In this document: positions 2,811 to 42,725 of the stretch, in pieces
How the letters are laid out: every line of letters starts with the position of its first letter
Numbering within the stretch: the first letter of the stretch is position 1
Assembly (NCBI RefSeq): GCF_964204645.1
Contig: NC_134028.1
Span: forward strand, 11,703,263-11,767,262
From: Tubulanus polymorphus
Taxonomy: Eukaryota; Animalia; Nemertea
Reading direction: 5' to 3'
DNA length: 64,000 bases
The notes under the pieces: generated by a model
Told to the model about the DNA's origin: nothing
Databases searched by the model: none
What the model saw: only the letters and a program-made list of their open reading frames with translations
Translations under genes and position numbers: made by a program

Positions 2811-2827
2811 ATTTTAACTTTATATTT

Positions 2828-7949: not shown

Positions 7950-8010
7950 TAATACATATATAAATCATTGAACTTCTAAAATCAATTTAAAAAAAAAATT
8001 TACGATTAAA

Positions 8011-11757: not shown

Positions 11758-11786
11758 TCAAATTTTAATAAAAATATGTATTATAA

Positions 11787-12140
11787 ATGGAGAGTAAACA
11801 AGCAAACAGTGAGAACAACAAATCATTTCTAGATAGAATAAAAGATACTTCAAATGTCAAATCAGTAGATTATAAATTTAAGATGTTAAAAGAATTAATA
11901 ATCCATCAGAAATATCTAATTACAAATATGGATACAGTTACTAACAAATATGAAGATAAATTAGTTATACACTTAGAATATGAAGGATTAAAAGGAAATA
12001 CATATAAATTCAGAACATATTTACCAGATAGATTTCATAGATTATCAAGTGAAGAGCTAGAAGAATTATGTTCTGGAGATTTCTATTTCGTATAAAAAGG
12101 TAAGAATGAAAAGGGGCACCACGAAATAGATTTCGAATAA
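11787..12140 (+). pseudogene. Small hypothetical protein, possibly OB-fold
   Basis: ORF with TAAATG start; probable premature stop at 12093; beta-rich pattern ending YLPDRF. The fold is an inference. Confidence 0.4.
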
Positions 12141-12154
12141 AATATGTAAAATAA

Positions 12155-12615
12155 ATGGTGGAATTAAAAGAATACAGAATATTTGTAGATTCTAGAAGAC
12201 TTACAAATTATAAATCTCATAATTTACTAGTACAATTAGATAGAGAATTTAAGAATTGTGTTGATTTAAAATTAGTTAATATAAGTTTATGTAATTCTTT
12301 TTACAATGTATCGGATAAAACTATTGAACATAGTTTTTTTAATTCATGATAGAAATAAAAGTAAATGGTTTCATCTTTATCTTAAACCAGGATTATATAA
12401 TTTAGATACATTAGCGCAGGAAATTAATAGAAGAGCTCGGTTGAAAATGGGTGCATCTGCTGGATTTGGATAAAGACTGATTAAAAGTGATAGCTCCGAT
12501 TAAATAAGAATAAAATTAGGTAATGAAGATCAACATCAATTTCTAGTTAAAAAACCTTTAGCTAAAATTTTAGGAATAACCCCAGATGTAGGGATACGCA
12601 ATGCTGATGCTATAC
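12155..12615 (+). pseudogene. Putative minor capsid (penton) protein, N-terminal part
   Basis: IFVDSR...L.REFKN.V.LKLV...NSFYNV followed by LKPGYYNLDTLAQEI, a pattern typical of polinton/virophage pentons; cut by the duplication at 12616. Confidence 0.6.
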
Positions 12616-13979
12616 CAATGGTATTAAAAAAAGTATTTAAAATGGGAAGTGTTAATGTTGATAGATTTGGTATAAATGATATCTTAAAATTAACCTTAGC
12701 AGTTACTTTATCTAATTTAACTATTGATTATTAAGAAAAACAAAAATATATTCCTCCTATATAAATACATAATTATTTTACTAAATAAATGGCTTCTGCA
12801 GTTATAACTATTATCGGATCTGCAATTGTTAACGCTTAAGCATTTACTGGTGGTGGTTATTTATTTAAACATATTGATAAAAATGGATCATTAACAGAAC
12901 AAAAAAGACATAACTTAGCATTAGAGAAATATAATAAAGCAGCAGAAGAATATTGAGAAAAGAGACAAAACTATATGGATTATATTAACAAAGAATTATA
13001 TGATCAGAAGATTTCACATAGAGATTTTCAATCAGTTGATGATGCAATGAATTTATATAACGCGGTAACCAATAAAGAACAATTACATCTACATAAACCT
13101 ACAATATCAGACAAAACATGGTAAAGAAATAAGAATTAAACTAAATGATGTAATTACTAATTTAATAAGTAAATCATTTAACAATGCATCAATGATTAAT
13201 AAAGAAAATTATAATATAGAAAAAGTAATTGATTTAATTAAAACGCCTTTAGAATATTATGAATTAAATGAAGATGGAATTATTGATGATATTAAAAACA
13301 TATTATCCAAAATATATGATAATCATAAAAGTAGTAATGAAATAAATGTTGAAATAATCATAAATAAGATAACTAAATATTTTGATGATAGTAATTTTTT
13401 TGATAAATAAATAAGTGATAATAAGTGGATGATAACTGGATTATATAATGGAGCATTACTATCAGTTGGAACTGTAGGTTATTCAATGGTATTAAAAAAA
13501 GTATTTAAAATGGGAAGTGTTAATGTTGATAGATTTGGTATAAATGATATCTTAAAATTAACCTTAGCAGTTACTTTATCTAATTTAACTATTGATTATT
13601 AAGAAAAACAAAAATATATTCCTCCTATATAAATACATAATTATTTTACTAAATAAATGGCTTCTGCAGTTATAACTATTATCGGATCTGCAATTGTTAA
13701 CGCTTAAGCATTTACTGGTGGTGGTTATTTATTTAAACATATTGATAAAAATGGATCATTAACAGAACAAAAAAGACATAACTTAGCATTAGAGAAATAT
13801 AATAAAGCAGCAGAAGAATATTGAGAAAAGAGACAAAACTATATGGATTATATTAACAAAGAATTATATGATCAGAAGATTTCACATAGAGATTTTCAAT
13901 CAGTTGATGATGCAATGAATTTATATAACGCGGTAACCAATAAAGAAAAATTACATCTACATAAACCTACAATATCAGA
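12616..13979 (+). repeat. ~496-bp direct duplication (12616-13111 and 13484-13979)
   Basis: Near-identical sequence at an offset of 868, sharing the same stop codons. Confidence 0.93.
13411..13632 (+). pseudogene. Small hydrophobic protein
   Basis: GALLSVGTVGYSMVLKK...LKLTLAVTLSNL; start codon mutated; one internal stop. Confidence 0.5.
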
Positions 13980-14079
13980 TTATTATACCCCAAGTAATGA
14001 ACAGAAGAAGTATGAAATAATATGGATTTTAGGTGGAACTATTATTGTTATATTTGTAGCATATAGATTTACTAATTAG
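13657..14079 (+). pseudogene. Small membrane protein (hydrophobic N-terminus, helical middle, C-terminal TM)
   Basis: MASAVITIIGSAIVNA*AFTGGGYLF...EQKRHNLALEKY...IIWILGGTIIVIFVAYRF. Confidence 0.65.
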
Positions 14080-14100
14080 TAATTTTTTTTTGCTAAATAA

Positions 14101-14514
14101 ATGGATGATAATATTGATATTATTCCTCATAATATAAATAAAACTAAATTAAAAATATATTTAGAAAAACAAATATTAGAATTTGAAAGTGACTTAAAAG
14201 TTAAAAAGAAAAAATATTTAAAAAGTAAAATTATCTTATTATTAGTGGTTCGGTTACAATTAGTTCTGTCATAACATTTTTAGCAATATTCAGTCCATTA
14301 ACACCTTTAGCTATATCAATTGGCGTATTAGGTTTAAGTTCAAGTGTTTTAACCGGCATAAGTTCAAAATTGAATATAAAAAGTAATTAAGAAAAAATTA
14401 AAACTAATATAAAAGAAATTAATAAATTAAAAAATACGATTGATTATATAATAAGTTTAAACGGTCATATAACAGTTGAAGAAGATAAATTATTAAAAGA
14501 ATTAGTAAATTATT
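14101..14514 (+). pseudogene. Small two-TM protein
   Basis: TAAATG start; hydrophobic SVITFLAIFSPLTPLAISIGVLGLSSSVLTG; frameshifted. Confidence 0.5.
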
Positions 14515-14532
14515 AATTTTTTAATTATATAA

Positions 14533-15810
14533 ATGGGGTTTCCAAAAGCTTTCCAATATAATAAATCAATTAAATATAATATTCCTGCAATAGATTTTAG
14601 AAAAAATATTACATATAAAAATGTAGTTTTAAATTCATTAACTAATTTAGAAATTTATGTTACTGAATCACAGTTTTTTATTTCTAAAGTGGAAAATATA
14701 TTTAATACATATGAAGTTACTTTTACTCGAGATGAATATCATATATATAAAGTAAAATCCAATATGAAATATTGGCAGAATCAATTAAATTTTGCTGTTT
14801 ATTGTGCAACAACTGGTTGTGGTATAAGTTGGAATGATCATTTAAATAACTAAGATAAAAATTTGAAGTATTCTGATTTAAAATTAATTCACACAATATT
14901 TAGATTTCACATATATTTTCAAATCAGAATAATATTAAATGAATTAGAACGTCCTTTATCCGGATCTAAATATTTTAAAGAATTGGATAATAATATTAAT
15001 CTATCTAAGTTTTATAAAATATGTAATGAATTTAACATAAATATTAATTCCGATTTTAGAGCGCATGGTAAATTGCAAGGTGTTGGTGAAGAGTATGAAA
15101 TAAAAAGAATTTATTATATGCATAGAATTGGAGCTTATCATAATTATAAAATCGATAATAATAATGGTTGGGTTAATTTCATTTTAGAAAATGGTGAAGG
15201 TTTTAACAAATCAGGTATACAAAGAATAAATCAATCAATTAGAACTTATTTGATATGTATTTTAGGTGCGCAAGTTGAAACAAGATCACCAATAGTTGGA
15301 AATGATAACACTTCATTTGATACGCAGACACAATTCAAAGTATTATTTGAAGATTCCATTCATAATGATAAAAATAGATCTATTCCAGAAAACATTGTAA
15401 GATATCAAAATTATTTAGATAAATCACATATTACATTAAGTATTAAATATTGTATAGGTCCTAATCTATTAATTATTTCTAATGATTTAGTATTAAAGAT
15501 GGGAAACATAATTGGTTACAATAATCTAATTAAAACTGCAACAATAAATAATTCATTTGGATTAAATGATATAAATAAAAAGATTATTATTGCTCCAAAA
15601 TTAATGGAAGGTGAAAAAAATAAAAAACATATTCAATCACCTGAAACTAAAATTAAAAATATTAAATTGGTTAATGATTCTAAAATAAAAGATTACAATA
15701 CATCAGAAAAAATTAAAACTGATAATATTCAACATGACATAATTAAACTAAATGATGATAATAAATCCCATGAAAATGCTAAATTAGCTTTAACTTGTAT
15801 TATATTTTAA
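14533..15810 (+). pseudogene. Polinton-family hypothetical protein (~425 aa, one stop)
   Basis: ORFs 14533..14853 and 14863..15810 are in the same frame; YWQNQLNFAVYCATTGCG and FRFHIYFQIR motifs. Confidence 0.7.
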
Positions 15811-15833
15811 ATTTTAATTTTTTTATTATGTAA

Positions 15834-17278
15834 ATGGCAGAAGGCGGAGGAGATTTCGAAATGAAAAACATGGGAAATAATGATGATGCCAATACTAACG
15901 ATGATGATTATGTGTCTACTGATACTAATATTGATAATGATGATGAATCAGCATATAATTCTAATTCTAATTTAGCAGATAGTGGTTCTGAAGCCCCATC
16001 AACAGATGAATTTGATAGAAGAACTAGATCGAGAATAAATCCTGAAAATCAAGGTTTATCAAGACAAGATTTAGAAAATAAAGAATATATCTATAAATTC
16101 AAACCTATATTTGAAGATTCTGGATATAATATAAATGCCAGAGGCGCCAGACTTTCAGTACAAGAATTAAAACTTTTAGATAATGGTGAATATTATTATC
16201 ATTTGAAAGATGATTATTATATTAATATCACTTATAAACGTGAAAACAAAATATTAGCAGAATCAACTTTTAGTAATTTAGAACCATTTAGAATTAAAAG
16301 AATAAGTAATAATAGTAATGAAATAGAAGATGTAACAAAAGAAGAAATAAATCAAAATAAAAGAGTATTTAAACAAAGAATTAATGACTTATTTGAAACA
16401 ATCAAAAATAATTTAGAACCAGAAACAATTGCTGAAGAAGTTATTAATTCCAAAACTAGTAAACTTAAGTCAAACGAAGTTCAAACTGAAAAACTTTTAC
16501 CGAATGGATTACTTGATTCAACAGATCAAGAAATAGAAGCTTTAAGTATGTTTTCTAAAAAAACAATTAGAGAAATAATAAGTATACGAAATGAAGCTGA
16601 TAAAATTGCGCACGATAAAAATATTAGATATAATAAAATTAAACCTTTAGAAAATAAATTATTTGTCACCAGAAAAGAATTAGAACAATTAAAATTAGAT
16701 AGAGAATTTAAAGTTATTGAAGAAATTGAATTAAAAAAAAGAAATGCATATTTAGAAAAAGAAATTGATGATTTAGAATATAACATAGAATTTCAGAAAG
16801 AAAAAATGAAATTATTATTAAAATCATATGATTATTGTATTAATAGATTAAAGTTGTTGTTAAAGAGTTAATACTAAAACCAAATTCTGACATATCACTA
16901 AAAGATAGAATAAAATTATTAAAGTTATTATTATTAAAGTTTGAAGGAATAACAATTCTTTCAATTCTAACAGCTGTAACTATGGTATTTACAACAATTG
17001 GTTTAGTTATATCAAATGCTTTAAAATCTACTCCTACTCCCAATAAACCAGATAAACCTCCAAATAACAATTCTATACAAGATAAAGTTAAAGATGGTTT
17101 AAAGAAATTTGCAAAATATTTATGGGAACTATCTAAAAAATCTGCTGCAGCTTTACCAGGAATTATTGCATCAATTGTTGGTTTTATTTTAAAATCTGCT
17201 GGAAACATTATTAACTTTGCTGCTGAACATATTATTTTATTTTTAATTACAGTTGTAAGTGCAATTATTTTGGGTTAG
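15834..17278 (+). pseudogene. Large protein: acidic N-terminus, coiled coil, C-terminal membrane segments
   Basis: ORF 15834..16871 is frameshifted into GITILSILTAVTMVFTTIGLVIS...AAALPGIIASIVGFIL...IILFLITVVSAIILG. Confidence 0.7.
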
Positions 17279-17347
17279 TAAATATGATATCAAAAAATAT
17301 CAAGTAAACATGATAAAAAATAAATAATTAATTTTTTTGTTGAATTA

Positions 17348-18603
17348 ATGAGTGGGAGTTATATCAATCCTTCTAAGAATCATAGAATATCTAATGCTAT
17401 TAAAGCAGAAAGATCACATCATATAATTACCCATAACCCTTCTAATATTAATCCTGATGAAACTTTATATGTTAGAATTCCTCGATTAACACAAAATACT
17501 TTTTATGTTCCAAATAGTATTTATTTATCAGCCGATATAAAAGTAACCGGTAATAATAATTATTATGTTGTCGATAATGTTGGAAGATATTTGATTAAAA
17601 AATTAACAATAAAGATCGGTCCAGAAACAGTTTTCTCATTAGATGATTATAATTTATTTATGCATTATAAAGATTTATGGTTAACTAAATAATATGATAT
17701 TTCAAGGCATCCGATCAGAAAACCAAAATAAATTAAGATCAGGAGCTAATGACGCAATAGTAACTCGTACCGCAGATAATTTGATAAAAAAAGATCTATG
17801 GAAGCAAATATAAAATTCCATTAGACTTTAATTTGATAAATAATAATGCACCTTTATATAAATATGCAATTCAAGAAGATGTTATATTAGAAATAACATT
17901 TGCTCCTGTAAATGAAATTGTATTATCCAGCGTTGTTAAAGACATGGGTTATAAATTATCGAATATATGTTTAGAATATGATACAGTAACTGATGAAAAT
18001 ATTTCAAGTATAATTCCAACTAAATACAATCAAGGATTTTCATTATTATATGATTATATTGATAAATTTAAAACTGTAACTATTAATGCAAATGATGAAA
18101 TAATTAATGAGAATATTAACTTCCCAATAAGATCTATTAAATGTATATTAATATTTTTTACCATTGCAACATATTCTAATGGTGCAATACAGGTTAATAA
18201 GTATTATAATCCTGAAATAACAAAAGTAGAAATAACTATTGAATGATTAGCAAATAAAATATTTTGTCAAGGAATGAGAATGATAAATCAATGGCCAGAA
18301 ATTAGAAAACATTTTATGAATGAAAAAGTGAAATCATCTGAAAATTGTAATATTAATCAAATTGATTATTATACCGGTAATAAATATGCATTATGGTTAG
18401 ATTTTAGAACAACAGAGGATAATTCATTACATGGTTCTGGGAAAAAACTACAGAACACTAAATATGGAATACAATTATTCATGACAAAGAAAAAAGGAAG
18501 CCTAAATTTCAAAATGCATATTTATATTATATCTGATATCTGATATTAAATATTGTAAATTCTCAAGTAAATTCTTCAAATTCTAAGTAGTGTTATGTAT
18601 TAA
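17348..18603 (+). pseudogene. Putative double-jelly-roll major capsid protein, copy B
   Basis: Three collinear fragments totalling ~410 codons; beta-rich; the most conserved gene among copies A, B and C; THNPS, IPLDF and LWLDFR motifs. The fold is inferred. Confidence 0.72.
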
Positions 18604-18635
18604 AATTTTAACTTTAATAAAAATTTATATAATAA

Positions 18636-19508
18636 ATGGAAGGAGGTAAAGTATATAAACATATTCCATACATCGATACACATGAAAATAATGATGGTTT
18701 ATATTATGTAATACCTTGTAATATAGCTTTGATATTCGATCCTATTTTCAAAATTTATAAAACTAAACTAATAGAAATCGATAATAATAAAAGTGAAGTT
18801 GTTGATAATTTAAGTAATGTAATTGATAATAATGCAATACCTTCTACATCTAATAATGCAATACCTTCTACATCTAATAATGCAATACCTTCTACATCTA
18901 ATAATGTAATACCTTCTACATCTAATAATGTAATACCTTCTACATCAAATAATGAAATAATATTAAATATTAGTGAAAATAGAAATTATTGTGATTATTG
19001 TAAATGTGAATTTTCAAACGCCCCATCAAATTGGAATAAACATATGAATACAAAGGTACATATTACTTATGTAATAGAACGTGTTGGTTTAAGAGAATTT
19101 ATAGAACACCCATTTAAATATGTTACAAAGTTTTTTTCAAATAAAAATGTAAATGGTAAACAATTATATGAAGATTTATCATTAGCAACACCTAATAAAG
19201 ATGAATTAGATTTAACCGATGCTAATAAAATATTAGGATCAAACATTGTAAATGAAATATTAGGAGCAAACACTAAGAAAGATGATAATGAAAATATAGT
19301 TACAGATAAGCATATTGATAATAAAGATTCTATGAAACATAAAGTAGAAAATAAAGATATAGTTGAGATGACTAATAAGTATATCAATAAACCAATTATT
19401 TATGAAGATACGGTAGAGCATTTGAATAAATTGTTAGGGCCTGATGATGAATTGGAGAGTGATGATGAAAGTGATTCAGAAATTAATTATCTAACACTCA
19501 AAAAGTAA
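18636..19508 (+). CDS. C2H2-type zinc finger protein with NN(A/V)IPSTS repeats and an acidic tail
   Basis: YCDYCKCEFSNAPSNWNKHMNTKVH; intact 290-aa ORF with TAAATG start. Confidence 0.75.
   Translation: MEGGKVYKHIPYIDTHENNDGLYYVIPCNIALIFDPIFKIYKTKLIEIDNNKSEVVDNLSNVIDNNAIPSTSNNAIPSTSNNAIPSTSNNVIPSTSNNVIPSTSNNEIILNISENRNYCDYCKCEFSNAPSNWNKHMNTKVHITYVIERVGLREFIEHPFKYVTKFFSNKNVNGKQLYEDLSLATPNKDELDLTDANKILGSNIVNEILGANTKKDDNENIVTDKHIDNKDSMKHKVENKDIVEMTNKYINKPIIYEDTVEHLNKLLGPDDELESDDESDSEINYLTLKK
18827..18953 (+). repeat. 24-bp coding tandem repeat, 5 units
   Basis: AATAATG(C/T)AATACCTTCTACATCT repeated. Confidence 0.9.
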
Positions 19509-19877
19509 TAAAGGTTGAAAATTGTATGAAATAATAGTAAATAAAAAGGGGTTTTTAAGTATTTAAGGTATTAATACAATCTAATAAAATCTAATACATA
19601 AAATATCTTATTTTATAAACTTATATTCATATGGAAATTGAAGCCTCAGAAGTAATTTTGAACCTTTATTATTTTCAAACTTATTCATATATTAGTTGAA
19701 AAAATAAAAATAAATTGGTTGAAAATTGTATAAATAATATTTATTTTAAAAAAGGGGGTTTTAAGTATTTAAGGTATCTAATAGGATATCTAATACATGG
19801 TAGGTATTAGGGTATCTAATAGGGTATCTAATACATAGGTAACTAATAGGGTATCTAATACATAGGTATATAAATAG

Positions 19878-20485
19878 TTATTTTATAAATTTATATTTAT
19901 ATGGAAATTGTAGTCTCAGTAATAATTTTGAACCTTTATTATTCTTTAATTTATTCATATATTCATCATGTAATTCAGTAGGTATAATTTGATTTTCAAT
20001 GATTGTTGCATAGATTTTCTATTTTTGTTATAACATTAAACTAGAAATCTTATATTCTCCCTAAAGTCTTTAACAATTGAATTATATTTTTGATTTAAAC
20101 CCCATGTTGTTATCCCAAAATGTCTTCCAGAGAAAGCTAAATAACATAACTCAGTCTCTCTAACTTTTGAATCATGTAAATTTGCGCAATCATCTATAAT
20201 GAATAATGCATTTGATCCTTTATAAGTATCAATTGCTATTTTTATACAATTATCTAAATTTTCTTTTACTGTTTTAGGATTTAATATAATAAACTTTTTC
20301 ATCTTAACTATATCTCTATTATATGTTTTATTCATTTCATAAGTAGGACAGAATAATATTATATTATCAAAATGATTCTTATAAATAGTTTCTAACAAAT
20401 CTAATATGAAATGTGTTTTACCACAGTTTGCTACTCCAGTAACTAACATATTATGTGGTTCAAATATAAATAAATCTTTATTCAT
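19878..20485 (-). pseudogene. A32-like packaging ATPase, copy B, frameshifted
   Basis: GVANCGKT, FIIDD, SGRHFG; collinear with the intact 36458..37069. Confidence 0.9.
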
Positions 20486-21570
20486 TTATTCTTTTAATTT
20501 TACTAGATAAAATCCATTCATTAAATTTATCATCATATCTTTTATATTTCACCAAAGAATACTTTTTTATCTTCTAAGAAGAGTTTTTGTTTTCAATACT
20601 TTTTCTATTTTATATTCTATTTCATCTGGATTTGGTACAAGTGATAATTCTTGTTCATAGAAATAACCTAATATTTCTTCGTCTTTTAGATCTTCTAGTT
20701 TATAAACAAATGGTTTAGTTAATATTATCTTTTTAATCTTGAATATTTCTTCTGTAAAATTAGGGGTATAACCTTTATAAAATGTTTTTCTATATTTAGA
20801 TATTCTAACGTGTTGTCCAATTTTAAATTTAGGTTCGCCGAAATCGTGTGTAACAAATGCTCCATATAAATTATTCCATACTATTTCTGAATTATCTTCT
20901 TTTCTAGCTTGTATAGGTTTCATATTTATAGAACTATGTTTATATTATAACCTTTCACTAAATCATCTAATACATCGATATATTTGTATGTTTCATTAGC
21001 AGTAAAATATTTCCACATTCTAGTTTTCAATGTTTTATTAAACCTTTCTATAATAGATGCTTTTTTATCTGAGTGTGTTGAAAAATAATCTACATCGTTA
21101 TCAGATAATAGTTTTTTGAAATGTTTGTTATAAAATTCCTTACCTTCATCAAATTGTATCTTATCTGGAATAGCTTCTTTAAATATTGATTTAAAAGCAT
21201 TTGTTACTTCTATACCAGTTTTATTTTTGATTGGAATTAACCATGCGTATCTACTGAATATGTCTATAACATTTAATATCCAGAAATATCCTTTGTTGTG
21301 TTCTTCTAAGTTCTTCATATCAATTAAATCAGCTTGCCATTGTTGATCTATATATGAAACCATAACTTTTCTTGTTAAATAAGTTTTATCCATTTTCTTA
21401 TGGATTTGATATGTTGGTTGATTTTGTAACCATGATATCAATTCACTATATTTTATATTACCATTTTCTTTATCAGATTTAATTTTATTCCATAATTCTG
21501 AAACGTTAGAATATGATACTTCACTTTCTGGGTTGTAATATAAATCCCTTAAATATTGTTCTTTTTTCAT
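20478..21570 (-). pseudogene. rve integrase with chromodomain, copy B, frameshifted
   Basis: QADLIDM, QFDEGKEF and IERFNKTLK (DDE); collinear with 35374..36465. Confidence 0.93.
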
Positions 21571-21576
21571 CTTATT

Positions 21577-21972
21577 TTAATCCATTAATAATAATTTAGA
21601 TTTAGTTTCAATGGCTTTATGATTTGACTTATTTTCTGGTATAATAGGTTTATTATCATTGGAATCATCTTTATCATCAGATTTGAATTTTGATTTATAT
21701 ATTACACCGGATAATATAATAACTGTTACTAATCCAATTGTAATATATAATTTATAATTACTTCCACTATTAGAAGAATCAGATGGATTATTATTTGAAT
21801 CAATATCAGATAATTTCTGTGATTCATTTACATCAGTTAATTTATTTTTCTTAGCTTTTTTTAATTCTGAAGATCTTTTACCTAATTCTCTTGCCCATTT
21901 AATTTGTTTCTCGGATCTAACCTTTTTCTTAACGTCACTGTGTGGGCGCCGTACGGCAATACCATCACTCAT
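21577..21972 (-). CDS. Small single-TM protein
   Basis: Basic N-terminus and TM LYITIGLVTVIILSGVIY; intact homolog at 34999..35367. Confidence 0.75.
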   Translation of the reverse strand: MSDGIAVRRPHSDVKKKVRSEKQIKWARELGKRSSELKKAKKNKLTDVNESQKLSDIDSNNNPSDSSNSGSNYKLYITIGLVTVIILSGVIYKSKFKSDDKDDSNDNKPIIPENKSNHKAIETKSKLLLMD

Positions 21973-22578
21973 TTATTTTAGTTAATTTTTGTTCTGATTC
22001 ATTTTCTGTTTCGCCGTTTGGTTGTAGTACATCTGTTTCGTTCTTACCTGATTTATATTCCATAGGCTTGATATTCGAAAATGTTATGACGCCAGTAGAA
22101 ATTAATGTCATTATTCCTCCTAATTGGAATGAAGTGTATCCAACCCGGTTTTGTAATTCTGTCATAACTAAATAATCATTTTTTAAATCGCTATATGATT
22201 TATTTTCATCATCAATTGGTATAATCCAGTTACATAATTTAGAATAACATTTTATAATACCATCACTTATAGAGTCGTTTATTCTAGCTAATCTAGCTTC
22301 TTCATAAATCTTAAAATATTTTATTACTTTATCTGGTTTTATAGAGTCTAATTCTTGAAAAGTTATTATTTTTCCCAAGAAATTCCCAAGAAAGATTTCC
22401 CGCCAGCAATTAGTAATTCAAGATGGTGTTTACAATATAAATAGTATTCATAATTTATATTGTTATTAACTTGAATATTATTTTCAATTTTGGTCGGAAT
22501 ATCCTTATTATCACTAATACCTAAATCATCTAATGTTTTTTCAATGCTGGTATTATTCTTACTCGATTTCTTTGACAT
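21965..22578 (-). pseudogene. Conserved hypothetical protein, frameshifted (homolog of 34407..35006)
   Basis: Two fragments collinear with the intact gene in copy C. Confidence 0.8.
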
Positions 22579-22824
22579 TTATATTAGATAAATTTAATAA
22601 GAAAAATATTATAAGTATTATAAAATGATACCAGTATCTCTTTAGATTAATACTAGCTTAGTTAAAGTTAAAGAATTTTAGTATTAGTTATTGCTTTTTT
22701 AGTATTTTTTATTTGTGATATAAAGTATTCTTTTTTGAAAAGAAAATATAAAAAAGCAATAACTAATACTAGCTAGTTGAAGATATGTAATTTTTAATAC
22801 TTTTTATTTAAAATCTATTATTCT

Positions 22825-23491
22825 TTAACCACTCATTAAAGATTCAACGTATTGTTCAATATTTGGATCATTGTTCCATTGTTCAATAAATTTCTTTGCC
22901 TTTGTTAACTGTTCTAAATATAACTGTAAATCTAGTTTATTAGATTTGATTTGATTTTCTTTCTTTTCAAGAGGTCTTAAATTTTTCCAACCCCAAATAA
23001 GTTTTTTTATTGTATTCATCATTCATGTTAAATTTAGATATCGGTAACGTATGATCAATATGAAAATAATCTCCATAATTATCTATATTCATTTGACTAT
23101 CGAATTGAAATATAATCCATGATTTGAGAAATTCATCTGAACAACCCAACAAATTAGATAATGTTTCTGAATGTGTTTCTTTGTTGAATAATTGTGTTAA
23201 TCTAGATCTTAAGCATTGTTTCAATCTAAAATTAAGATCTGTTTGATATCTTTCTCTCATATATTCTGCCATATAATAATTATAATGTTCTATATTATCT
23301 TCTCGGTATTGTTTGTTATATAGTTTAGTGCAAGTTTTACAGCAATATTGAAAACCATCTTTGCTAATCTTACGCTTAGTAAATTCTGTTAATGATTTAT
23401 CTAATTCACACTTAGAACACTTCTTGTAGTATATATTTATAACACCAGTGTTATTTGTAATATTGATAGTTTGTGGTTGTTCTGGTTCCAT
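22825..23491 (-). pseudogene. HNH-type endonuclease with N-terminal CxxC...CxxC finger, frameshifted
   Basis: CSKC...KDG...CKTC, HIDHTLP and NLRPL...EN..KSNK. Confidence 0.75.
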
Positions 23492-23923
23492 TTATTATAC
23501 GTATTTTTTTACTAAATTGGTTAATATTTTAGAATCCTCTTCCATTTCTTCGACCAACGTCATCCTTTTTCATTCCTCGCTGGTCTTGATAAGTCGTTTC
23601 GATTCCTTGATATCTAAATCATACCACTGGGCAAAACCGCTCTTATAGGAGCGCTTTTGCTTAATGCGCATGCGTTAATCATAATTATATATTCATTCTG
23701 TAAATTCTGTAAAATAGAAACGACCGACATAAAGTATCAAAACGTGTTCGCATTAGGCAAAACCGCTCTTATAGGAGCGGTTTTGATCAATGCGCATCCG
23801 CTAATCATAATTTAAACAACTGAACATAGAACATTCACCAAGCATATTTACACAATACATATACAAGTATGTTCGATCGTTGTATTGACAAAATTTATAG
23901 TTTCAACTAATACATCATTTGAT

Positions 23924-24667
23924 TTATAATTCCAACCAGAACTTTTCAATTTCTGGATCATTGACAAGCATTTTTTCAATATCGTTTAAATATTTTACTA
24001 TATCAGAAAATGACAAACTTAAAAATTGGAATCTTTTATATGTAATTAATCTCCCCCCTACGCTTCTTAATTTTCTTTCATACCCAGCACTAATACCTAT
24101 ATATTCTTTAACCCAAGACGCCCAAGAAATCCCCGCAGTTTGTTTATAAAACATTAAAAATCCCCTATTTAAACAATCTCCGAAAATGATATAATCCCAT
24201 AAATGCTTTGCTTTTTTAAATAACAAGGTTCTATAATTTTTTTTAAATTAAACGGTTATTTCATTAAATGATGTTACACCTTCTATTTCTTTAAAACTTA
24301 CATCTTTTTCATTCGATAATTTTGATTTTAAAAACTTATTTAACTCATTTCCACCAATTTTCTTTTTAGTTTTTGTTCCTTTTAGTCTCAACAATATTTC
24401 TACATTGGTTGTTGGTCTTTTCGGTAATGATGTTACGCTTGATTGCTGGTTTTCTATTATTTTTTCTAAAATTAATGTCATTTCTTGGTGGTAATATAAA
24501 TTTTTTTTAACTTCTAACGTTTCGCCGTCTATATCTAAAGATTCTTTTACTTCAACACCCATTTCCATCGGTTCGTCTTCCTTCATTTCGGTTGGTTCGT
24601 CTTCCTCCATTTCGGTTGTCCTCTGAGAATTAAGAGTACTTCTTGATACACACGACATTTTATTCAA
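23924..24667 (-). pseudogene. Accessory hypothetical protein (two fragments)
   Basis: Adjacent same-strand ORFs; an N-terminal remnant (RESIEMEDKTL) is present in copy C at ~33310-33429. Confidence 0.55.
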
Positions 24668-25272
24668 CTAAAAGATATCAGCGGTAGAACAGGAACTGCG
24701 ATATTAAATGATATAAATATTTTCAAGTCTATCGCTTCTAATTATTATAACTTATTATAGTTCAAGTTATTATCTATCTAACGTAAAATAGAATTAACTG
24801 TAACTGTAGTTGTCAAAAGCACTTAAAGGTTTCATATTTAATAGCCCTAATAACTACAAAAAACAGTACTTACATTTAGATTTAGAATTGTAAACTATAA
24901 ACTCCTAATTTCGTTTTGAGAGATAGAATATCCTAAGCGTTATGTTACAGCGTCTATTCAGTTCCAGTGCGATTTCGAAATGAACACGTCGTCGATTATG
25001 CCACGTCATCTAGTTCCGGCACACCTTCTAGAATGTTCTACACGTTTGTGATTATGACGTGTCATCTCTATTCAGAGTTCCGGTACACCTTCTAGAATGT
25101 TCTACGCGTTTGCAATATTATGTCTCATATGTCTCGGCGTCATAGTAACAGCTGTAACAGCTGTGAATTTATTGATTTATTCAATAGTTCATTACATGAA
25201 ATGTATATAGGCTCAAATAGAATCATGTTCTAGTATAAACAGCTATGTATTATATCATGTATATATGTATGT

Positions 25273-25881
25273 TTTCAATCACACTTTACTAACACTTTTA
25301 ATGTTTAAAAATCTAACTCATACAAATATAAATATTGAATGGTGTTTAAAATATATCTATATATCTATTCTATAAGAGCTCACACTTTACTAACACTTTT
25401 ATATTGAATAATCTGTCAATTCAAATGTTATTCATATATATAAATATTTTAAGAGTAATAGGGGTTTAGTTGTTCTATACTAAAGGTTGAATGGTCGAGT
25501 TCATTAAAAACAAATATTAAAAGTAATTTAAAACTATAATATATTTTCACAGCCGTGTGTATTTCAGTTGAATAATAGAATAATTATTATTATTAAAATA
25601 TATTTGATTATATGAATTTGTGTATTGTAAATAAATCAATTGGTCGCGATAGCGAAGCGGAGCGACCAATTGATTTAATACAATATGCTTTATAGGGTTA
25701 GGGTTAATACAATATGCTTTTGAAATTTAAATTATTAATATCTTAGAATAAATATTTAGTTATAATATAAAATGCACACGGCTATGAAAATATATTATAG
25801 TTTTTAATTACTTTTAATATTTGTTTTTTAATGAGCTCGACCGTTCGACCTTTGGTATAGAACAACTAAACCCCTATTACT
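25273..25881 (-). repeat. Right TIR of copy B, including a terminal palindrome at 25454-25881
   Basis: Reverse complement of 7359-7949. Confidence 0.93.
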
Positions 25882-31866: not shown

Positions 31867-32287
31867 AGTAATAGGGATAATAGGCTTTCAGATCAAAGGT
31901 CGAAGGGTCGAGCTCGTAAAAAAATGAAAATAACAATAATTTACAGTTGAATTAGTCGCGCACACTCCTAATTCAACTGTAAATTATTGTTATTTTCATT
32001 TTTTACTCACTCGCCCCTTCAACCTTTAACCTGAAAGCCTATTATCCCTATTACTCTTAAGATATTCACATATACATGAATAAAATGTAAATGAATAACA
32101 TTTAAATTGACAGATTATTCAATATAAAAGTGTAAGCTCTTATAGAATAGATATATAGATAGATATATTTACAACATTATTTCAATATTCATATTTGTAT
32201 GAGTTAGATTTTTAAACATTAAAAGTGTTAGTAAAGTGTGATTGAAATAATACATAATATAAATCATTGAACTTCTAAAATCAATTT
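31867..32287 (+). repeat. Left TIR of copy C with a 189-bp terminal palindrome (31867-32055)
   Basis: Reverse complement of 42726-43142. Confidence 0.92.
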
Positions 32288-32309
32288 CGTAAAAAAATAT
32301 GTATAATAA

Positions 32310-32969
32310 ATGGAACCAGAACAACCACAAACTATAAATATTAAAAATAACACTGGCGTCATAAATATATACTACAAGAAGTGTTCTAAATGTGAATTAG
32401 ATAAATTAGCTTTAACAGAATTTAGTAAGCGTAAGATTAGCAAAGATTCAAGTTTTCAATATTGCTGTAAAACTTGTTTTAAACTATATACCAAACAATA
32501 CCGAGAAGATAATATAGAACATTATAATTATTATATGGCAGAATATATGAGAGAAAGATATCAAACAGATCTTTGTTTTAGATTGAAACAATCCTCAAGA
32601 TCTAGATTAACACAATTATTCAACAAAGAAACACTATCTAATTTATTGGGTTGTTCAGATGAATTCTTAAAATCATGGATTATATTTCAATTCGATGATA
32701 AAATGAATATAGATAATTATGGTGATTATTACCATATTGATCACGTGTTGCCGATTTCTAAATTTGACATGAATGATGAATACAATAAAAAACTTATTTG
32801 GAATTGGAAGAATCTAAGACCTTTAGAAAAGAAGGAAAACATAATTAAATCTAATAAACTAGATTTACAGTTATATTTAGATCAACTGGATAAAGCAAAG
32901 ACATTTGTTGAATTATGGAATAGTATTTCACAGAATCAACCGCATTCTGAGGTTTTAATCAGTGGTTAG
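32310..32969 (+). CDS. HNH-type endonuclease with zinc finger, open reading frame
   Basis: CSKC...CKTC; YHIDHVLPISKF...WNWKNLRPLEKKENIIKSNK, resembling giant-virus HNH proteins. Confidence 0.78.
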   Translation: MEPEQPQTINIKNNTGVINIYYKKCSKCELDKLALTEFSKRKISKDSSFQYCCKTCFKLYTKQYREDNIEHYNYYMAEYMRERYQTDLCFRLKQSSRSRLTQLFNKETLSNLLGCSDEFLKSWIIFQFDDKMNIDNYGDYYHIDHVLPISKFDMNDEYNKKLIWNWKNLRPLEKKENIIKSNKLDLQLYLDQLDKAKTFVELWNSISQNQPHSEVLISG

Positions 32970-33489
32970 AAAGCTGGCAATTCTATTTTTGAGCTTTGTA
33001 TGTATATAATACATAGCTTTTGCTTCCTACTAAAACATATGTTGCCAAATATATCTTGTTTTCAATTCTAAAGAATTAATTAACTTCATCACAAAGAAAA
33101 TCTGTGCAGAAATAATTAGTTTGGTCGAACGTCCGCCACGTCGGCAGTTAGAAATCAACTTTCACATACATAGTACGTATTGGATATTCTCTCTCAAAAC
33201 ACAGTTTACAGTTCTAAATCTAAGTGTAAGTACATATATTATGAAGTAGGGAAACCTTTAAACATATTTAAGTACAGTAATTCATTTTCACGACATCTTT
33301 TAGATTAAAATGGAATACAGAGATCAACCAGAAATTCCAAGTCAACAATCGGGTGAGGAACTAATGCTGCTGGATAGTGAAACTCGGGAATCAATAGAAA
33401 TGGAGGATAAAACTCTCGTAACACACTGAAGGTCTTTGTAATATAGATATCAAAAATGTAATCTCGATTGTATATATGTTTTAATATTG

Positions 33490-33997
33490 TATTGTTTACT
33501 GTTAACTAAGTATTGCGCAATAACCGGTCCGATTGAACCGCTTTTCTATTGTTCTCCATTGTTCTATTATTGATCGTTGTTAATGGCGGCGGTTGTTCTG
33601 TATTGATTGTTTACTGTTAACTAAGTATTGCGCAATAACCGGTCCGATTGGACCGCTTTTCTATTGTTCTCCATTGTTCTATTATCGATCGTTGTTGACG
33701 GAAACAGCTGCTCAATATTGATTGGTTACAGTTCTATGTTTGAATGTTGTAGTTTACAGAATAAAAATATAACTGTGTATTGCGCAATAACCGGTCCGAT
33801 TGGACCGCTTTTCTATTGTTCTCCATTGTTCTATTATCGATCGTTGTTGACGGAAACAGCTGCTCAATATTGATTGGTTACAGTTCTATGTTTGAATGTT
33901 GTAGTTTACAGAATAAAAATATAACTGTGTATTGCGCAATAACCGGTCCGATTGGACCGCTTTTCTATTGTTCTCCATTTTTCTATTATCGATCGCT
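33490..33997. repeat. Tandem array (115-152 bp spacing) with four palindromic cores
   Basis: TATTGCGCAATAACCGGTCCGATTGGACCG at ~33511, 33626, 33778 and 33930. Confidence 0.9.
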
Positions 33998-34406
33998 AAA
34001 ATTTACATAATAAATATATGTGTTTATGAAATAATATTTCCACCAGTCGTTTCTTTGAATTTATTTTCAGTTTTAGGATTTATTATCGAGAATCCGAAAT
34101 GACTTATCTGGACAGTTATAATTACTGCTCCTAATAGATAGACAATAGTAGTGAGATATTAAATCCTAATTTAAATAAAATATAATAAAAAAACAATAAC
34201 TTCAACTGCTAGTGAATTCTATTATATTTTTAATATTTTCTTTTCAAAAAGAGAATACTTTATATTTTGAATAGATTCAAATAGAAATTCTTTAAATTCA
34301 AACAGCTAGTATCAGTAGTCAATACTAGAATTCTTTAACTTTAACTATCTACTATCATTTGAAGAATACTTATAATATTTTTTTCGCCTTTTTTTCTCCT
34401 ATATAA

Positions 34407-35006
34407 ATGGCAAAGAAATCTAATAAGAATAGTATTGATATTGAAAAGACATTAGATGATTTGGGTATAAGTGATAATAAAGATACAGTTGTAACTAATT
34501 TTGCTCAAGTTAATAACAATATAGATTATGAATACTACTTATATTGTAAGCATCATCTAGAACTATTGATTGCCGGTGGAAAAACTAAAGAGTTTTTAAA
34601 TAGAATTACTTTTCAAGAATTAGATGCTATGAAACCAGATAAAGTAATAAAATATTTTAAGATTTATGAAGAGGCAAGATTAGCCCGAATAAATGATTCT
34701 ATTTCAGATGGTATTGTCAAATGTTATTCTAAGTTATGTAACCAGTTAATACCAATTGATGATGAAAATAAATTATATAGTGATTTGAAAAATGACTACT
34801 TAGTTATGACTGAATTACAAAAATGGGTTGGATATGCTTCATTTCAATTAGGATCGGTTATGACATTAATTTCTACTGGCGTCATAACATTTTCGAACAT
34901 CAAACCTATGGAATATAAATCAGGTAACAACGAAACAGATGTACTACAACCAAACGTCGAAACAGAAAATGAATCAGAAAAAAATTTAACTAAAATAAAT
35001 GAGTGA
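34407..35006 (+). CDS. Polinton conserved hypothetical protein
   Basis: Intact 199-aa ORF with homologs in copies A and B; hydrophobic C-terminal segment. Confidence 0.82.
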   Translation: MAKKSNKNSIDIEKTLDDLGISDNKDTVVTNFAQVNNNIDYEYYLYCKHHLELLIAGGKTKEFLNRITFQELDAMKPDKVIKYFKIYEEARLARINDSISDGIVKCYSKLCNQLIPIDDENKLYSDLKNDYLVMTELQKWVGYASFQLGSVMTLISTGVITFSNIKPMEYKSGNNETDVLQPNVETENESEKNLTKINE

Positions 35007-35367
35007 TGGCGTCAAGAAAAAGGTTAGATCTGAAAAACAAATTAAATGGGCAAGAGAATTGGGTAAAAGATCTTCAGAATTAAAAAAAGCTAAGAAAAAG
35101 AAATTAACTGATATAAATGAATCACAGACTTTATCTGATAATGATTCGGATGATAATCCATCTGATTCTTCTAATGCTGGAAGTAATTATAAATTATATA
35201 TTACAATTGGATTAGTAACAGTTATTATATTATGCGGCGTAATATATAAATCAAAATTCAAATCTGATGATAAAGATGATTCCAATGACAATAAACATAT
35301 TATACCAGAAAATAAGTCAAATTATAAAGCCATTGAAACTAAATCTAAATTATTATTAATGGATTAA
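34999..35367 (+). CDS. Small single-TM protein
   Basis: TM LYITIGLVTVIILCGVIY; overlaps the upstream gene by 8 nt. Confidence 0.78.
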   Translation: MSDGVKKKVRSEKQIKWARELGKRSSELKKAKKKKLTDINESQTLSDNDSDDNPSDSSNAGSNYKLYITIGLVTVIILCGVIYKSKFKSDDKDDSNDNKHIIPENKSNYKAIETKSKLLLMD

Positions 35368-35373
35368 AATAAG

Positions 35374-36465
35374 ATGAAAAAAGAAAAATATTTAAGAGAG
35401 TTATATTATAACCCAGAAAGTGAAGTATCATATTCTAACGTTACAGAATTATGGAATAAAATTAAATCTGATAATGAAAATGGTAATATAAAATATAGTG
35501 AATTAAAATCATGGTTACAAAATCAACCAACATATCAAATACACAAGAAAATGGATAAAACTTATTTAACAAGGAAAGTTATGGTTTCATATATCGATCA
35601 ACAATGGCAAGCAGATTTAATTGACATGAAGAACTTAGAAGAATACAACAAAGGATATTTCTGGATATTAAATGTTATAGACATATTCAGTAGATACGCA
35701 TGGTCAATTCCAATCAAAAATAAAACTGGTATAGAAGTAACAAATGCTTTTAAATCAATATTTAAAGAAGCTATTCCAGATAAGATACAATTTGATGAAG
35801 GTAAGGAATTTTATAACAAACATTTTAAAAAACTATTATCTGATAACGATGTAGAATATTTTTCAACACACTCAGATAAAAAAGCATCTATTATAGAAAG
35901 ATTTAATAAAACATTGAAAACTAGAATGTGGAAATACTTTACTGCTAATGAAACATATAAATATATCGATGTAATAGATGATTTAGTGAAAGGTTATAAT
36001 AATTCTAAACATAGTTCTATAAATATGAAACCTATACAAGCTAGAAAAGAAGATAATTCAGAAATAGTTTGGAATAATTTATATGGAGCGTTTGTAACAC
36101 ATGATTTCGGTGAACCTAAATTTAAAATTGGACAACACGTAAGAATATCTAAATATAGAAAAACCTTTTATAAAGGTTATACCCCAAATTTTACTGAAGA
36201 AATATTCAAGATTAAAAAGATAATATTAACAAAACCATTTGTTTATAAATTAGAAGATCTAAAAGATGAAGAAATATTAGGTTATTTCTATGAACAAGAA
36301 TTATCACTTGTACCAAATCCAGATGAAATAGAATACAAAATAGAAAAAGTAATGAAAACAAAAACTCTTAAAGGAAAAAAGTATTCTTTGGTGAAATATA
36401 AAGGATACGATGATAAATTTAATGAATGGATTTTATCTAGTAAAATTAAAAGAATAAATGAATAA
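35374..36465 (+). CDS. Retroviral-type (rve) integrase with C-terminal chromodomain, intact
   Basis: DDE motifs QADLIDM, FDEGKEF and IERFNKTLK; YKIEKV...LVKYKGYDDKFNEW. Confidence 0.95.
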   Translation: MKKEKYLRELYYNPESEVSYSNVTELWNKIKSDNENGNIKYSELKSWLQNQPTYQIHKKMDKTYLTRKVMVSYIDQQWQADLIDMKNLEEYNKGYFWILNVIDIFSRYAWSIPIKNKTGIEVTNAFKSIFKEAIPDKIQFDEGKEFYNKHFKKLLSDNDVEYFSTHSDKKASIIERFNKTLKTRMWKYFTANETYKYIDVIDDLVKGYNNSKHSSINMKPIQARKEDNSEIVWNNLYGAFVTHDFGEPKFKIGQHVRISKYRKTFYKGYTPNFTEEIFKIKKIILTKPFVYKLEDLKDEEILGYFYEQELSLVPNPDEIEYKIEKVMKTKTLKGKKYSLVKYKGYDDKFNEWILSSKIKRINE

Positions 36466-37069
36466 AGATTTATTTATATTCGAACCGCATAATATGTTAG
36501 TTACTGGAGTAACCAATTGTGGTAAAACACATTTCATATTAGATTTGTTAGAAACTATTTATAAGAATCATTTTGATAATATAATATTATTCTGCCCCAC
36601 TTATGAAATGAATAAAACATATAATAGAGATATAGTTAAGATAAAAAAGTTTATTATATTAAATCCTAAAACAGTAAAAGAAAATTTAGATAATTGTATA
36701 AAAATAGCAATTGATACTTATAAAGGATCAAATACATTATTCATTGTGGATGATTGCGCAAATTTACATGATTCAAAAGTGAGAGAAAGTGAGTTATGTT
36801 ATCTAGCTTTTTCTGGTAGACATTTTGGGATAACAACATGGGTTTTAAATCAAAAATATAATCCAATTGTTAAAGACTTTAGGGAGAATATAAGATTTCT
36901 AGTTTTATTTTACAACAAAGATAGAAAATCTATGCAACAATCATTGGAAGAAAATCAAATTATACCTACTGAATTACATGATGAATATATGAATAAATTA
37001 AAGAATAATGAAGGTTCAAAATTATTACTGAGACTACAATTTCCCTATGAATATAAGTTTATAAAATAA
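36458..37069 (+). CDS. A32/FtsK-like DNA packaging ATPase, intact
   Basis: Walker A GVTNCGKT, Walker B FIVDD, GRH arginine motif, LNQ sensor. Confidence 0.92.
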   Translation: MNKDLFIFEPHNMLVTGVTNCGKTHFILDLLETIYKNHFDNIILFCPTYEMNKTYNRDIVKIKKFIILNPKTVKENLDNCIKIAIDTYKGSNTLFIVDDCANLHDSKVRESELCYLAFSGRHFGITTWVLNQKYNPIVKDFRENIRFLVLFYNKDRKSMQQSLEENQIIPTELHDEYMNKLKNNEGSKLLLRLQFPYEYKFIK

Positions 37070-37436
37070 CTATTTATATATCTATCTATCTAATACGTAT
37101 TAAATACGTATTAGATACGTATTAAATACATTAATACTTAAAACCCCATTTTTAAAATAAATATTATTCATACAATTTTCAACCAATTTATTTTTATTTT
37201 TTTCAACTAATATATGAATAAGTTTGAAAATAATAAAGGTTATTTATTATTACCGAGGTTTCAATATAAATTTAAAAAAGAAATATAATTTAAGGTTTTT
37301 TCAAATAATATGTATTAAATACGTATTAGATACGTATTAGATATGTATTAGATATGTATTAAATACGTATTAGATACCTTAATACTTAAAACCCCCTTTT
37401 TTATTTACTATTATTTTATACAATTTTCAACCTTTA

Positions 37437-38363
37437 TTACTTTTTGAGTGTTAGATGATTACTTTCTGAATCACTTTCATCATCACTCTCCAATTCATCA
37501 TCAGACCCTAACAATTTATTCAAATGCTCTACCGAATCTTCATAAATAATTGGTTTATTGATATACTTATTAGTCATCTGAACTATATCTTTATTTTCTG
37601 ATTTAAGTTTCATAGAATCTTTATTATCAATGCGCTTTCCTGTAACTATATCACCATGTGGGTGCCATACGGCACCATTTTCATTAGTATCTTTATTAGT
37701 GTTTGCTCCTAATATTTCATTTACAATGTTTGATTCTAATTTAATACCATCAGTTAAATCTAATTCATCTTTATTAGGTGTTGCTAATAATAAATCTTCA
37801 TATAATTCTTTACCATTTACTTTTTGATTTGAAACAAACTTTGTAACATATCTAAATGGGTGTTCTATAGATTCTTTTTTACCAACACGTTCTATAACAT
37901 TAGTAATATGTACCTTTGTATTCAGATGATTATTCCAATTTGATGGAGCGTTTGAAAATTCGCCTTTACAATAATCACAATAATTTCTATTTTCACTAAC
38001 ATTTAATATTATTGCATTATTATATGTAGAAGGTATTACATTATTAGATGTAGAAGGTATTACATTATTAGATGTAGAAGGTATTACATTATTAGATGTA
38101 GAAGGTATTACATTATTAGATGTAGTAGGTTTACATTATTAGATGTAGAAGGTATTACATTATTAGATGTAGAATGTATTACATTACTTAAATTATCAAC
38201 AACACCACTTTTATTATTATCGATTTCTATTAGTTAAGTTTTATAAATTTTGAAAATAGGATCAAATATCAAAGCTAATTACAAGGTATTACATAATATA
38301 AACCATCATTATTTTCATGTGTATCGATGTATGGAATATGTTTATATACTTTACCTCCTTCCA
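37437..38363 (-). pseudogene. Zinc finger/repeat protein, homolog of 18636..19508, frameshifted
   Basis: Collinear DNA similarity; about 7 units of the 24-bp repeat at 38011-38190. Confidence 0.8.
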
Positions 38364-38396
38364 TTTATTATATAAATTTTTATTGAAGTTAAAATT

Positions 38397-39538
38397 TTAA
38401 TACATAACACTATTTAATTGAGAATTTACAATATTTAATTGCGCGTCAGATATAATATAAATGTGCATTTTAAAATTTTTGATACCTTTATTCTTTGTCA
38501 TGAATAATTGTATTCCATCTTTAGTGTTTTGTAATTTTTTTCCAGAACCATGCAATGAATTATCCTCTGTTGTTCTAAAATCTAACCATAATGCATATTT
38601 ATTGCCGGTATAATAATCAATTTGATTAATATTACAATTTTCAGATGATTTCACTTTTTCATTCATAAAATGTTTTCTAATTTCTGGCCATTGATCAATC
38701 TTTCTCATTCCTTGACAAAATATTTTATTTGCTATTCCTTCGATAGTTATTTCTACTTTTGTTATTTCAGGATTATAATAATTATCAACATTTATTGCGC
38801 CATTAGTATATGTTGCAATGGTAAGAAATATTAATATGCCTTTAATAGATCTCCTTGGGAAGTTAATATTCTCATTAATTATTTCATCATTTGCATTAAT
38901 AGTTACAGTTTTAAATTTATCAATATAATCATATAATAATGAAAATCCTTGACTGTATTGAGTTTGAATTATACTTGAAATATTTTCATCAGTTACTGTA
39001 TCATATTCTAAACATATATTCGATAATTTATAACTCATATCTTTATTAACGCTAGATATTACAATTTCATTTACCGGAGCAAATGTTATCTCAAATATAA
39101 CGTCTTCTTGAATTGCGTATTTATATAAAGGTGCATTGTTATTTATCAATTCAAAGTCTAATGGAATTTTATATTTGCTTCCATAAATCTTTTTTATCAA
39201 ATTATCTGCGGTACGAGTTACTATTGCGTCATTAGCTCCTGATCTTAATTTATTTTGGTTTTCTGATTGGATGCCTTGAAATATCATATTATTTCTATTT
39301 TCTTTAGTTAACCATAAATCTTAATAATGCATAAATAAATTATAATCATCTAATGAGAAAACTGTTTCTGGTCCAATCTTTATTGTTAATTTTTTAATCA
39401 AATATCTTCCAACATTATCAACAACATAATTATTATTATTACCGGTTACTTTTATATCGGCTGATAAATAAATACTATTTGGAACATAAAAAGTATTTAT
39501 TTTGTGTTAATCGAGGAATTCTAACGTATAAAGTTTCA
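38397..39538 (-). pseudogene. Putative major capsid protein, copy C, 5' end deleted
   Basis: 296-aa open C-terminal part; upstream fragments match 17460-17690. Confidence 0.75.
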
Positions 39539-42500: not shown

Positions 42501-42703
42501 TCACTGAATGATTGATTACATGTATCACATTTGTATGTTTCTTTTTCATTCTTTAATTCGTCTAATTTAGTTTCTAATATATCATCTTTATATTCTAGTT
42601 TCAATTTATTCTCTAAATGTGTTTTAGTTTTATTGTGTCTTGCTTTTTGGGATTTATCTATATTGATATTACATGTTGGGCAGTAGTACTTATTTGCTTC
42701 CAT
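39536..42703 (-). pseudogene. pPolB, copy C, internally and 3' deleted
   Basis: Open 459-aa N-terminal part; YIDANNLYGWAM, NNAFYGK and YFDTD; deletions at ~41085 and ~39538. Confidence 0.93.
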
Positions 42704-42725
42704 TTTAATACTAAATTTTTTATTA

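Follow-up and report, generated by a model that had tools for sequence, protein, structure and literature searches.

The tips of two Polinton/Maverick elements in the nemertean Tubulanus polymorphus, elements B and C, are long imperfect palindromes in which the differences between the arms favour one strand. Where a difference recurs at both tips of one element and can be scored, the strand ending 3' at the terminus nearly always carries a G·T or G·A pair. We propose that these shared mismatches reflect selection for folding of the 3'-terminal strand while it is single-stranded, which would recreate a duplex origin where protein-primed replication can begin; to this reading we give an even chance. 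It is a good deal more probable that some selected function lies behind them, when a protein-primed origin, self-priming and marking of the arms are taken together.

Polinton insertions and their palindromic tips

In the analysed 64,000-nt stretch (the window), three related Polinton insertions lie within 43 kb. One of them, A (positions 1-3680), is a third copy that is incomplete and more diverged, and no matching terminus for it was found in the window. Judged from their sequence, the other two, B and C, are Polinton/Maverick insertions (Table 1). B has terminal inverted repeats (TIRs) of about 0.6 kb and a 6-bp target duplication, ATCGAC, while C has TIRs of about 0.4 kb and the target duplication GCTAAG. 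Both read AG...CT from end to end, letters that are a feature of Polinton/Maverick termini, and the two are mostly 86-93% identical over long shared blocks. Pfam profiles for an organellar/viral PolB, an rve integrase with chromodomain and an A32 ATPase matched in both elements. Several genes of B are broken, among them the candidate capsid gene, where the Capsid_N match is weak and below the cut-off (E 7.5e-4). No Pfam match to an adenain-type protease or a penton was found in 35 ORF stretches, in which genes are broken. The named relatives of the integrase come from animals, and the host flanks contain pieces of Pao and RT retroelements.

Table 1 Features of elements B and C in the window.
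Feature	Position	Strand	Details
Element B, Polinton/Maverick	7359..25881	.	18.5 kb
B left terminal palindrome	7359..7767	-	409 nt; arm alignment, folding
B left apex motifs GCGGCAGC, GCGAAGC, GCGGAGC	starts 7565, 7559, 7554	-	pattern scan
B pPolB in several frames, with endonuclease VII-like insert	7972..11570	+	DNA_pol_B_2 E 3e-9; Endonuclease_7 E 4e-5
B right terminal imperfect palindrome	25454..25881	+	428 nt; + strand is the 3'-terminal strand
B right inner arm	25454..25565	+	T of the T·G pairs at 25481, 25488, 25492, 25500, 25560
B right apex, overlapping mini-hairpin motifs GCGATAGC, GCGAAGC, GCGGAGC	25646..25663	+	pattern scan
B right outer arm, ends in the element's 3' end	25769..25881	+	arm alignment
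Element C, Polinton/Maverick	31867..43142	.	11.3 kb, internally deleted
C left terminal palindrome	31867..32055	-	189 nt; tandem G·A/A·G at 48-49 on the - strand
C integrase (rve and chromodomain) and A32 packaging ATPase	35368..37069	+	Pfam
C pPolB N-terminal reading frame	41324..42742	-	zinc fingers, predicted terminal-protein domain, vOTU domain
C right terminal palindrome	42954..43142	+	189 nt; arm alignment, shuffle test

All four tips of B and C are imperfect palindromes of 189-428 nt, which open each TIR and adjoin the target duplication. The inner arm is a copy of the terminus in inverted orientation, and the terminal base pairs exactly with it, with template continuing inward. Against 200 shuffles, the two ends of C gave folding z-scores of -20 and -24.

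Several further features were seen in and around the elements. A subterminal ORF (22967-23491 in B, 32310-32969 in C) encodes paired cysteines and a His-Ile-Asp-His motif, appears HNH-like by eye and gave no Pfam match. The interior of C holds four copies of a 74-nt repeat at a spacing of 115-152 nt (33503-33995), to which short palindromes in B (23632-23794) are related. A homologous ORF of both elements (18803-18983 and 37977-38210) contains coding tandem repeats of 24 nt. In host DNA, positions 26022-26321 form a small fold-back element that has no relation to the Polinton tips; its arms of ~60 nt are 97% identical. The right hairpin of B alone contains a 28-nt insertion (25691-25718) holding TAGGGTTAGGGTTA beside a short local duplication. 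This insertion resembles a captured piece of TTAGGG repeat, a telomere motif, as might be acquired at a break, and contigs from three sequencing runs skip its site.

Strand polarity of the arm differences

We aligned outer to inner arms with a scoring that was blind to mismatch type. The arm sequences of B and C were as quoted in an earlier note made from the sequence, and its four same-direction C/T differences in B, all with C in the outer and T in the inner arm, lie at positions 28, 35, 39 and 47 from the tip (at the right end, inner 25481, 25488, 25492 and 25500 and outer 25854, 25847, 25843 and 25835). Two of the four, 28 and 47, are outside CpG, as it had said, with 35 and 39 inside. On the strand that ends 3' at the tip, each of the four is a T·G pair, and the complementary strand has C·A; C has the same polarity at 26 (A/G), 28, 35 and 47.

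Considering only differences common to both ends, B has T·G on the 3'-terminal strand at 28, 35, 39, 47 and 108, one bulge, and two G·T and one A·A in the upper stem; a C·A at 113, the last pair before a branched zone, runs the wrong way. C has pairs of G·T type at 26, 28, 35 and 47, one bulge and, on the 3'-terminal strand, pairs of G·A type at 42, 48 and 49. Positions 28, 35 and 47 are common to B and C and were counted once, with sign tests run on distinct sites and bulges and A·A excluded. Of the shared sites scorable by a G or C, 11/12 were G·T or G·A on the terminus-ending strand (two-sided P 0.006), a count in which the G·A class was added after the data had been seen. G·T against C·A alone gave 8/9 (two-sided P 0.039), and the lower stem with the adjacent sites 47-49 merged gave 7/7 (P 0.016). 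Thus, the polarity observation holds, and is broader than first noted. Other fold-backs in the window, taken as controls, had too few clean mismatches.

In contrast, the seven differences specific to one end are unbiased (two G-containing, three C-containing and two T·T), the pattern expected of recent neutral change; the three that contain C on the 3'-terminal strand, and so run the wrong way, are all in B. At 25550, 25552 and 25782, nearly all depth of the sequencing-run contigs carries another letter (in run X1, for example, 48,901/48,901 and 97,275/99,437), a depth that is no measure of copy number and comes from contigs that can lie on either arm. These contigs suggest that the wrong-way pairs of B at 98 and 100 are not family-wide. 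The middle zone of B-left, which is loosely paired and uncertain in alignment, has 16 mismatches (5 G·T, 2 A·G, 6 A·A, 2 T·T and 1 T·C), a count that includes the two upper-stem G·T and leaves out B-right owing to the 28-nt insertion.

The sample is two related elements in which three sites were inherited once. With so few independent events, P values of 0.016-0.039 under the most conservative counts and one mismatch class defined post hoc, chance has to be weighed as an explanation, but we consider it very unlikely, since the stem polarity, the apex motifs described below and the contrast with the end-specific changes all agree in direction.

CpG decay, which the earlier note had named as a competing account, fits poorly: it hits both strands, and only 2/6 lower-stem transition sites are CpG. 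The observed/expected CpG ratio is 0.89-1.05 in the host flanks, which are not depleted, and 0.71-0.77 in the elements. A wider version would be local strand-biased mutation or repair with no functional selection, either C>T and A>G changes where the 3'-terminal strand lies exposed, or repair that removes C·A and C·T hairpins. A C>T or A>G change on that strand would indeed account for each of the six lower-stem transition sites. However, the three G·A sites and the apex motifs are left unexplained, and the TIR interior is C-rich on the 3'-terminal strand (21-25 C against 9-14 G). Private changes there number 0 for C>T, 1 for G>A, 3 for A>G and 3 for T>C, and gene changes whose direction was set by comparison with copy A (2,320 columns) are also even-handed (C>T 6 and G>A 9; A>G 20 and T>C 20). 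These counts leave room for a bias restricted to the last 100 nt, and in the repair version the strand must fold all the same. We regard mutation or repair bias as improbable.

Arm evolution and orientation

The outer arms of B and C show 0/10 differences at the tip, 12/17 at 11-27 in an ungapped comparison (with gaps allowed, 8 mismatches and 2 gaps) and 1/22 at 28-49, while the inner arms differ at 4/22 sites of 28-49. All 12 outer-arm changes at 11-27 are mirrored in the inner arms, so the arms have been kept complementary, through copying or selection. The mismatches at 28, 35 and 47, inside a conserved GGTCGA core, are nevertheless found in both B and C, and further mismatches of the same polarity have arisen in each lineage.

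That the arms are kept distinguishable, as had been suggested, gains indirect backing here: positions 28, 35 and 47 persist while 12/17 of the neighbouring positions changed in both arms. The agents put forward for this, an integrase or a nickase, do not fare as well. A retroviral-type integrase reads its end within the first 25-27 nt, and these are the same in both arms except for one G·T at C-right position 11, which makes a role for integrase weak. No HUH nickase was found in the 35 ORF stretches scanned. If the mismatches mainly served to mark outer against inner arm for either enzyme in duplex DNA, the persistence of three arm differences in the core would be accounted for, but duplex DNA offers no reason for G·T or G·A to gather on one strand, and with the tips alike and a nickase missing from those stretches we think such marking has little likelihood. 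A replication origin for a terminal-protein polymerase fits better than either enzyme.

As the earlier note stated, no flipped isomer is present: 4/4 ends are in the same orientation, which would happen by chance in 1 of 8 cases and is weak alone. The build-up of polarity is the stronger argument against flip-flop, as we infer that a regularly flipping hairpin could not accumulate it.

Folding of the two strands

Comparison of the folding energies of the two strands, which had been proposed as a check, favours the 3'-terminal strand at 4/4 ends. With DNA parameters it folds better than the other strand by 8.8-10.2 kcal/mol (-119.4/-109.2, -123.0/-113.3, -80.6/-71.8 and -75.7/-66.3 kcal/mol), an advantage that derives from the same mismatches and is no independent evidence. 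The strand gap is larger with RNA parameters, 21-28 kcal/mol, as would suit a structure acting as RNA with G·U pairs. Yet the nearest long ORFs read inward at 4/4 ends, which makes the G·T strand the template strand, Rfam gave no match near threshold, and the class of motif found at the apexes is described as far less stable in RNA form (PMC13037366). An RNA role is hardly credible on these grounds.

Mini-hairpin motifs at the apexes

A scan for the pattern GCG(N)NAGC found three overlapping motifs in each apex of B, at both ends and all on the 3'-terminal strand (Table 1). The two apexes hold 6/21 of the motifs in the window, both strands counted, and a 10-nt indel separates the two ends, yet three motifs remain at each. 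Of the four motif types present, three have measured melting temperatures of 71-76 °C as DNA: 76, 73 and 71 °C for GCGAAGC, GCGGAGC and GCGATAGC, respectively, whereas the related GCGAAAGC, as RNA, has a melting temperature of 39 °C (PMC13037366 section 2.3). The fourth, GCGGCAGC, fits the general pattern and is absent from the melting table of that paper. According to the same source, the mini-hairpin structure forms with GNA triloops only, and such motifs occur at single-strand origins (PMC13037366).

The C apex has no GCG(N)NAGC motif; it is purine-rich on the 3'-terminal strand, where tandem G·A is possible. We take the B motifs as a probable independent sign of 3'-strand folding. Contigs from the sequencing runs show length variants of 4-10 nt in the apex (25645-25658), which would mean that the number of apex units varies among copies.

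The polymerase and its predicted terminal protein

Both elements have DNA_pol_B_2 matches above the cut-off. We modelled the N-terminal frame of the C pPolB on a 15-sequence alignment (mean pLDDT 70.9). Residues 145-260 of the model resemble the Y-family little-finger fold (Z 7.5, rmsd 3.1, 102 aligned) and residues 292-412 a vOTU protease (Z 7.5, rmsd 3.4, 102 aligned); a Z of 7.5 is moderate, under the tool's level for a clear match, and a designed protein ties. An adintovirus protein was the best viral structure match (E 1e-16). Across the 15 aligned sequences Ser241-Gly242 is almost fully conserved; it lies between helix 2 and the last strand (strand 4), and the same domain layout and linking position are described for PRD1-like terminal proteins (10.1101/2024.03.18.585575). 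The pPolB is thus predicted from the model to retain a terminal-protein domain with a candidate linking serine, and with this layout and the Ser-Gly pair protein priming has likely been kept.

The predicted domain bears on the strongest competitor of a protein-primed origin, in which the folded 3' end primes from its own 3'-OH, as happens in parvoviruses, and the closed end is then resolved so as to keep one orientation. Self-priming predicts the same polarity, and the last base is placed for it, pairing exactly with the inner arm with template onward. It has been proposed for Halocafeteria virophages (10.64898/2026.07.28.741278), and some bocaparvovirus ends are described in one form only (PMC8242256). 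An endonuclease VII-like insert in the pPolB could do the cutting. Against it stand the predicted persistence of the terminal-protein domain with its candidate serine and the lack of an HUH endonuclease in the 35 ORF stretches. Ordinary parvovirus terminal resolution flips the hairpin, and such flipping would erase the polarity. We judge self-priming unlikely, while giving it real weight.

The endonuclease VII-like insert (9238-10668) is present in the B pPolB and in an intact relative (P0135), and is missing from C. A PDB sequence search did not confirm it, we found no paper passage on its mismatch preference, and a link between the insert and the hairpin is speculation.

A proposed origin at the folded 3' end

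For the protein-primed origin, we envisage that strand displacement, or a strand leaving the chromosome, would give a free single-stranded 3' end, which would pair with the inner arm 190-430 nt away and not with the far end of the genome. The fold-back would present a duplex terminus at which the terminal protein primes, and the polymerase would copy through the hairpin without inversion, so that it never flips. Inner-arm changes would persist where pairing on the 3'-terminal strand survives. The same changes would erode the GGTCGA core in its inner copy and make the other strand's hairpin less stable, giving fewer false starts and fewer cruciforms in the duplex form.

In its fullest form, this amounts to a one-strand origin switch: the 3' ends would fold, through G·T, sheared G·A and mini-hairpins, into a duplex origin only when single-stranded, and the same letters would inactivate the inner copy and suppress chromosomal cruciforms. 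We offer the switch tentatively, as a possibility with the balance against it. If the switch is real, the long-proposed single-stranded intermediate of Polinton excision and replication would have left its mark in these sequences, with a local fold-back in place of the panhandle. Counting against the protein-primed reading are the wrong-way B 113 and three end-specific B sites, the motif-less C apex and the fact that 3'-OH self-priming predicts the same polarity. Its structural core, that the 3'-terminal strand is under selection to form a structure when single-stranded, had been put forward in the earlier note and appears largely right, as the polarity, the G·A sites, the apex and the unbiased end-specific changes agree; the agents named there are unsupported.

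The exit of Polintons from the chromosome and their start of replication rest on models, as summarised in 10.64898/2026.07.28.741278. Where the evolution of a palindrome favours folding of one strand, this would tell which strand is single-stranded and at which end; the polarity argues against flip-flop hairpin transfer. The tips are short natural DNA substrates on which protein priming could be set against self-priming, and the polarity count can be applied to any Polinton, polinton-like virus (PLV) or virophage with palindromic ends.

Comparison with related loci and known systems

We collected 119 related loci, 92 through their integrase, of which 80 are metagenomic and were the best among 192 confirmed, and another 27 through their pPolB. 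Among these 119, most of which are without their ends, there was no B/C terminus and no comparable long terminal hairpin. In three loci (L116, L129 and L138) the available sequence includes TIRs but no long hairpin, so the polymerase group as a whole may not share such ends. A 525-nt fold-back in L081 was rejected as a terminal hairpin, as it duplicates coding sequence. A single-sequence scan of viral contigs gave no match; the pattern matches there (22 and 2) had no hairpin context and were judged chance, and searches of tRNA, phage and atlas collections gave no useful match. Polinton-type integrases of L086-L092 sit on short contigs in bacterial MAGs and are probably binned eukaryotic or viral DNA.

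Terminal palindromes as such are already known; the strand polarity was not found in the literature searched. Our search by title and start of abstract, with subscription journals, Repbase and the 2006-2007 founding papers outside its scope, found no report of strand-polar mismatches at Polinton ends. The word 'hairpin' is absent from two adintovirus-related papers, a nematode Polinton preprint and the terminal-protein preprint (10.1101/2024.03.18.585575). The closest precedent is in Halocafeteria seosinensis, where virophages (subtypes 1, 2, 5 and 6) and the PLV subtype 4 have terminal palindromes and hairpin priming is proposed (10.64898/2026.07.28.741278). As described there, these ends are like those of B and C in having the palindrome in the TIR by the target duplication of an integrated element with an RVE integrase. 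They differ in that the palindrome of the figured subtype is 52 nt, against 189-428 nt in B and C, and in that the palindromes mostly accompany non-pPolB replication genes, whereas B and C both encode a terminal-protein pPolB. The main text of that paper uses none of the words mismatch, wobble, flip and imperfect, and its supplement may bear on this.

In gene content and layout, B and C are like other Polintons and adintoviruses, with TIRs, a 6-bp target duplication, a pPolB with terminal-protein and vOTU domains, an integrase and a packaging ATPase. The standard Polinton model of Kapitonov and Jurka has the two far ends anneal, as reported in 10.64898/2026.07.28.741278. Like the adenovirus panhandle, that model joins far ends, whereas the 3' ends of B and C can fold locally.

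Parvovirus replication employs an HUH Rep, and poxvirus genomes have covalently closed ends. Imperfect terminal hairpins are common to both and to B and C, and mismatches in the viral hairpins are functional (PMC8242256, PMC8956199), as described for the vaccinia hairpin (PMC8956199). Parvovirus flip/flop needs both strands to fold (PMC8242256), whereas B and C favour one strand, with 0/4 ends flipped.

Streptomyces telomeres offer a parallel in the fold itself, having 3' single-strand hairpins closed by sheared G·A that serve terminal-protein priming (PMC4513846). GNA loops of this type, with sheared G·A on the 3' strand, are predicted in the B apexes and absent from C. The Streptomyces ends belong to a bacterial linear replicon with an internal origin and Tap/Tpg end patching, and consist of several short palindromes without integration (PMC4513846), whereas B and C are integrated elements that carry one long fold-back at each tip.
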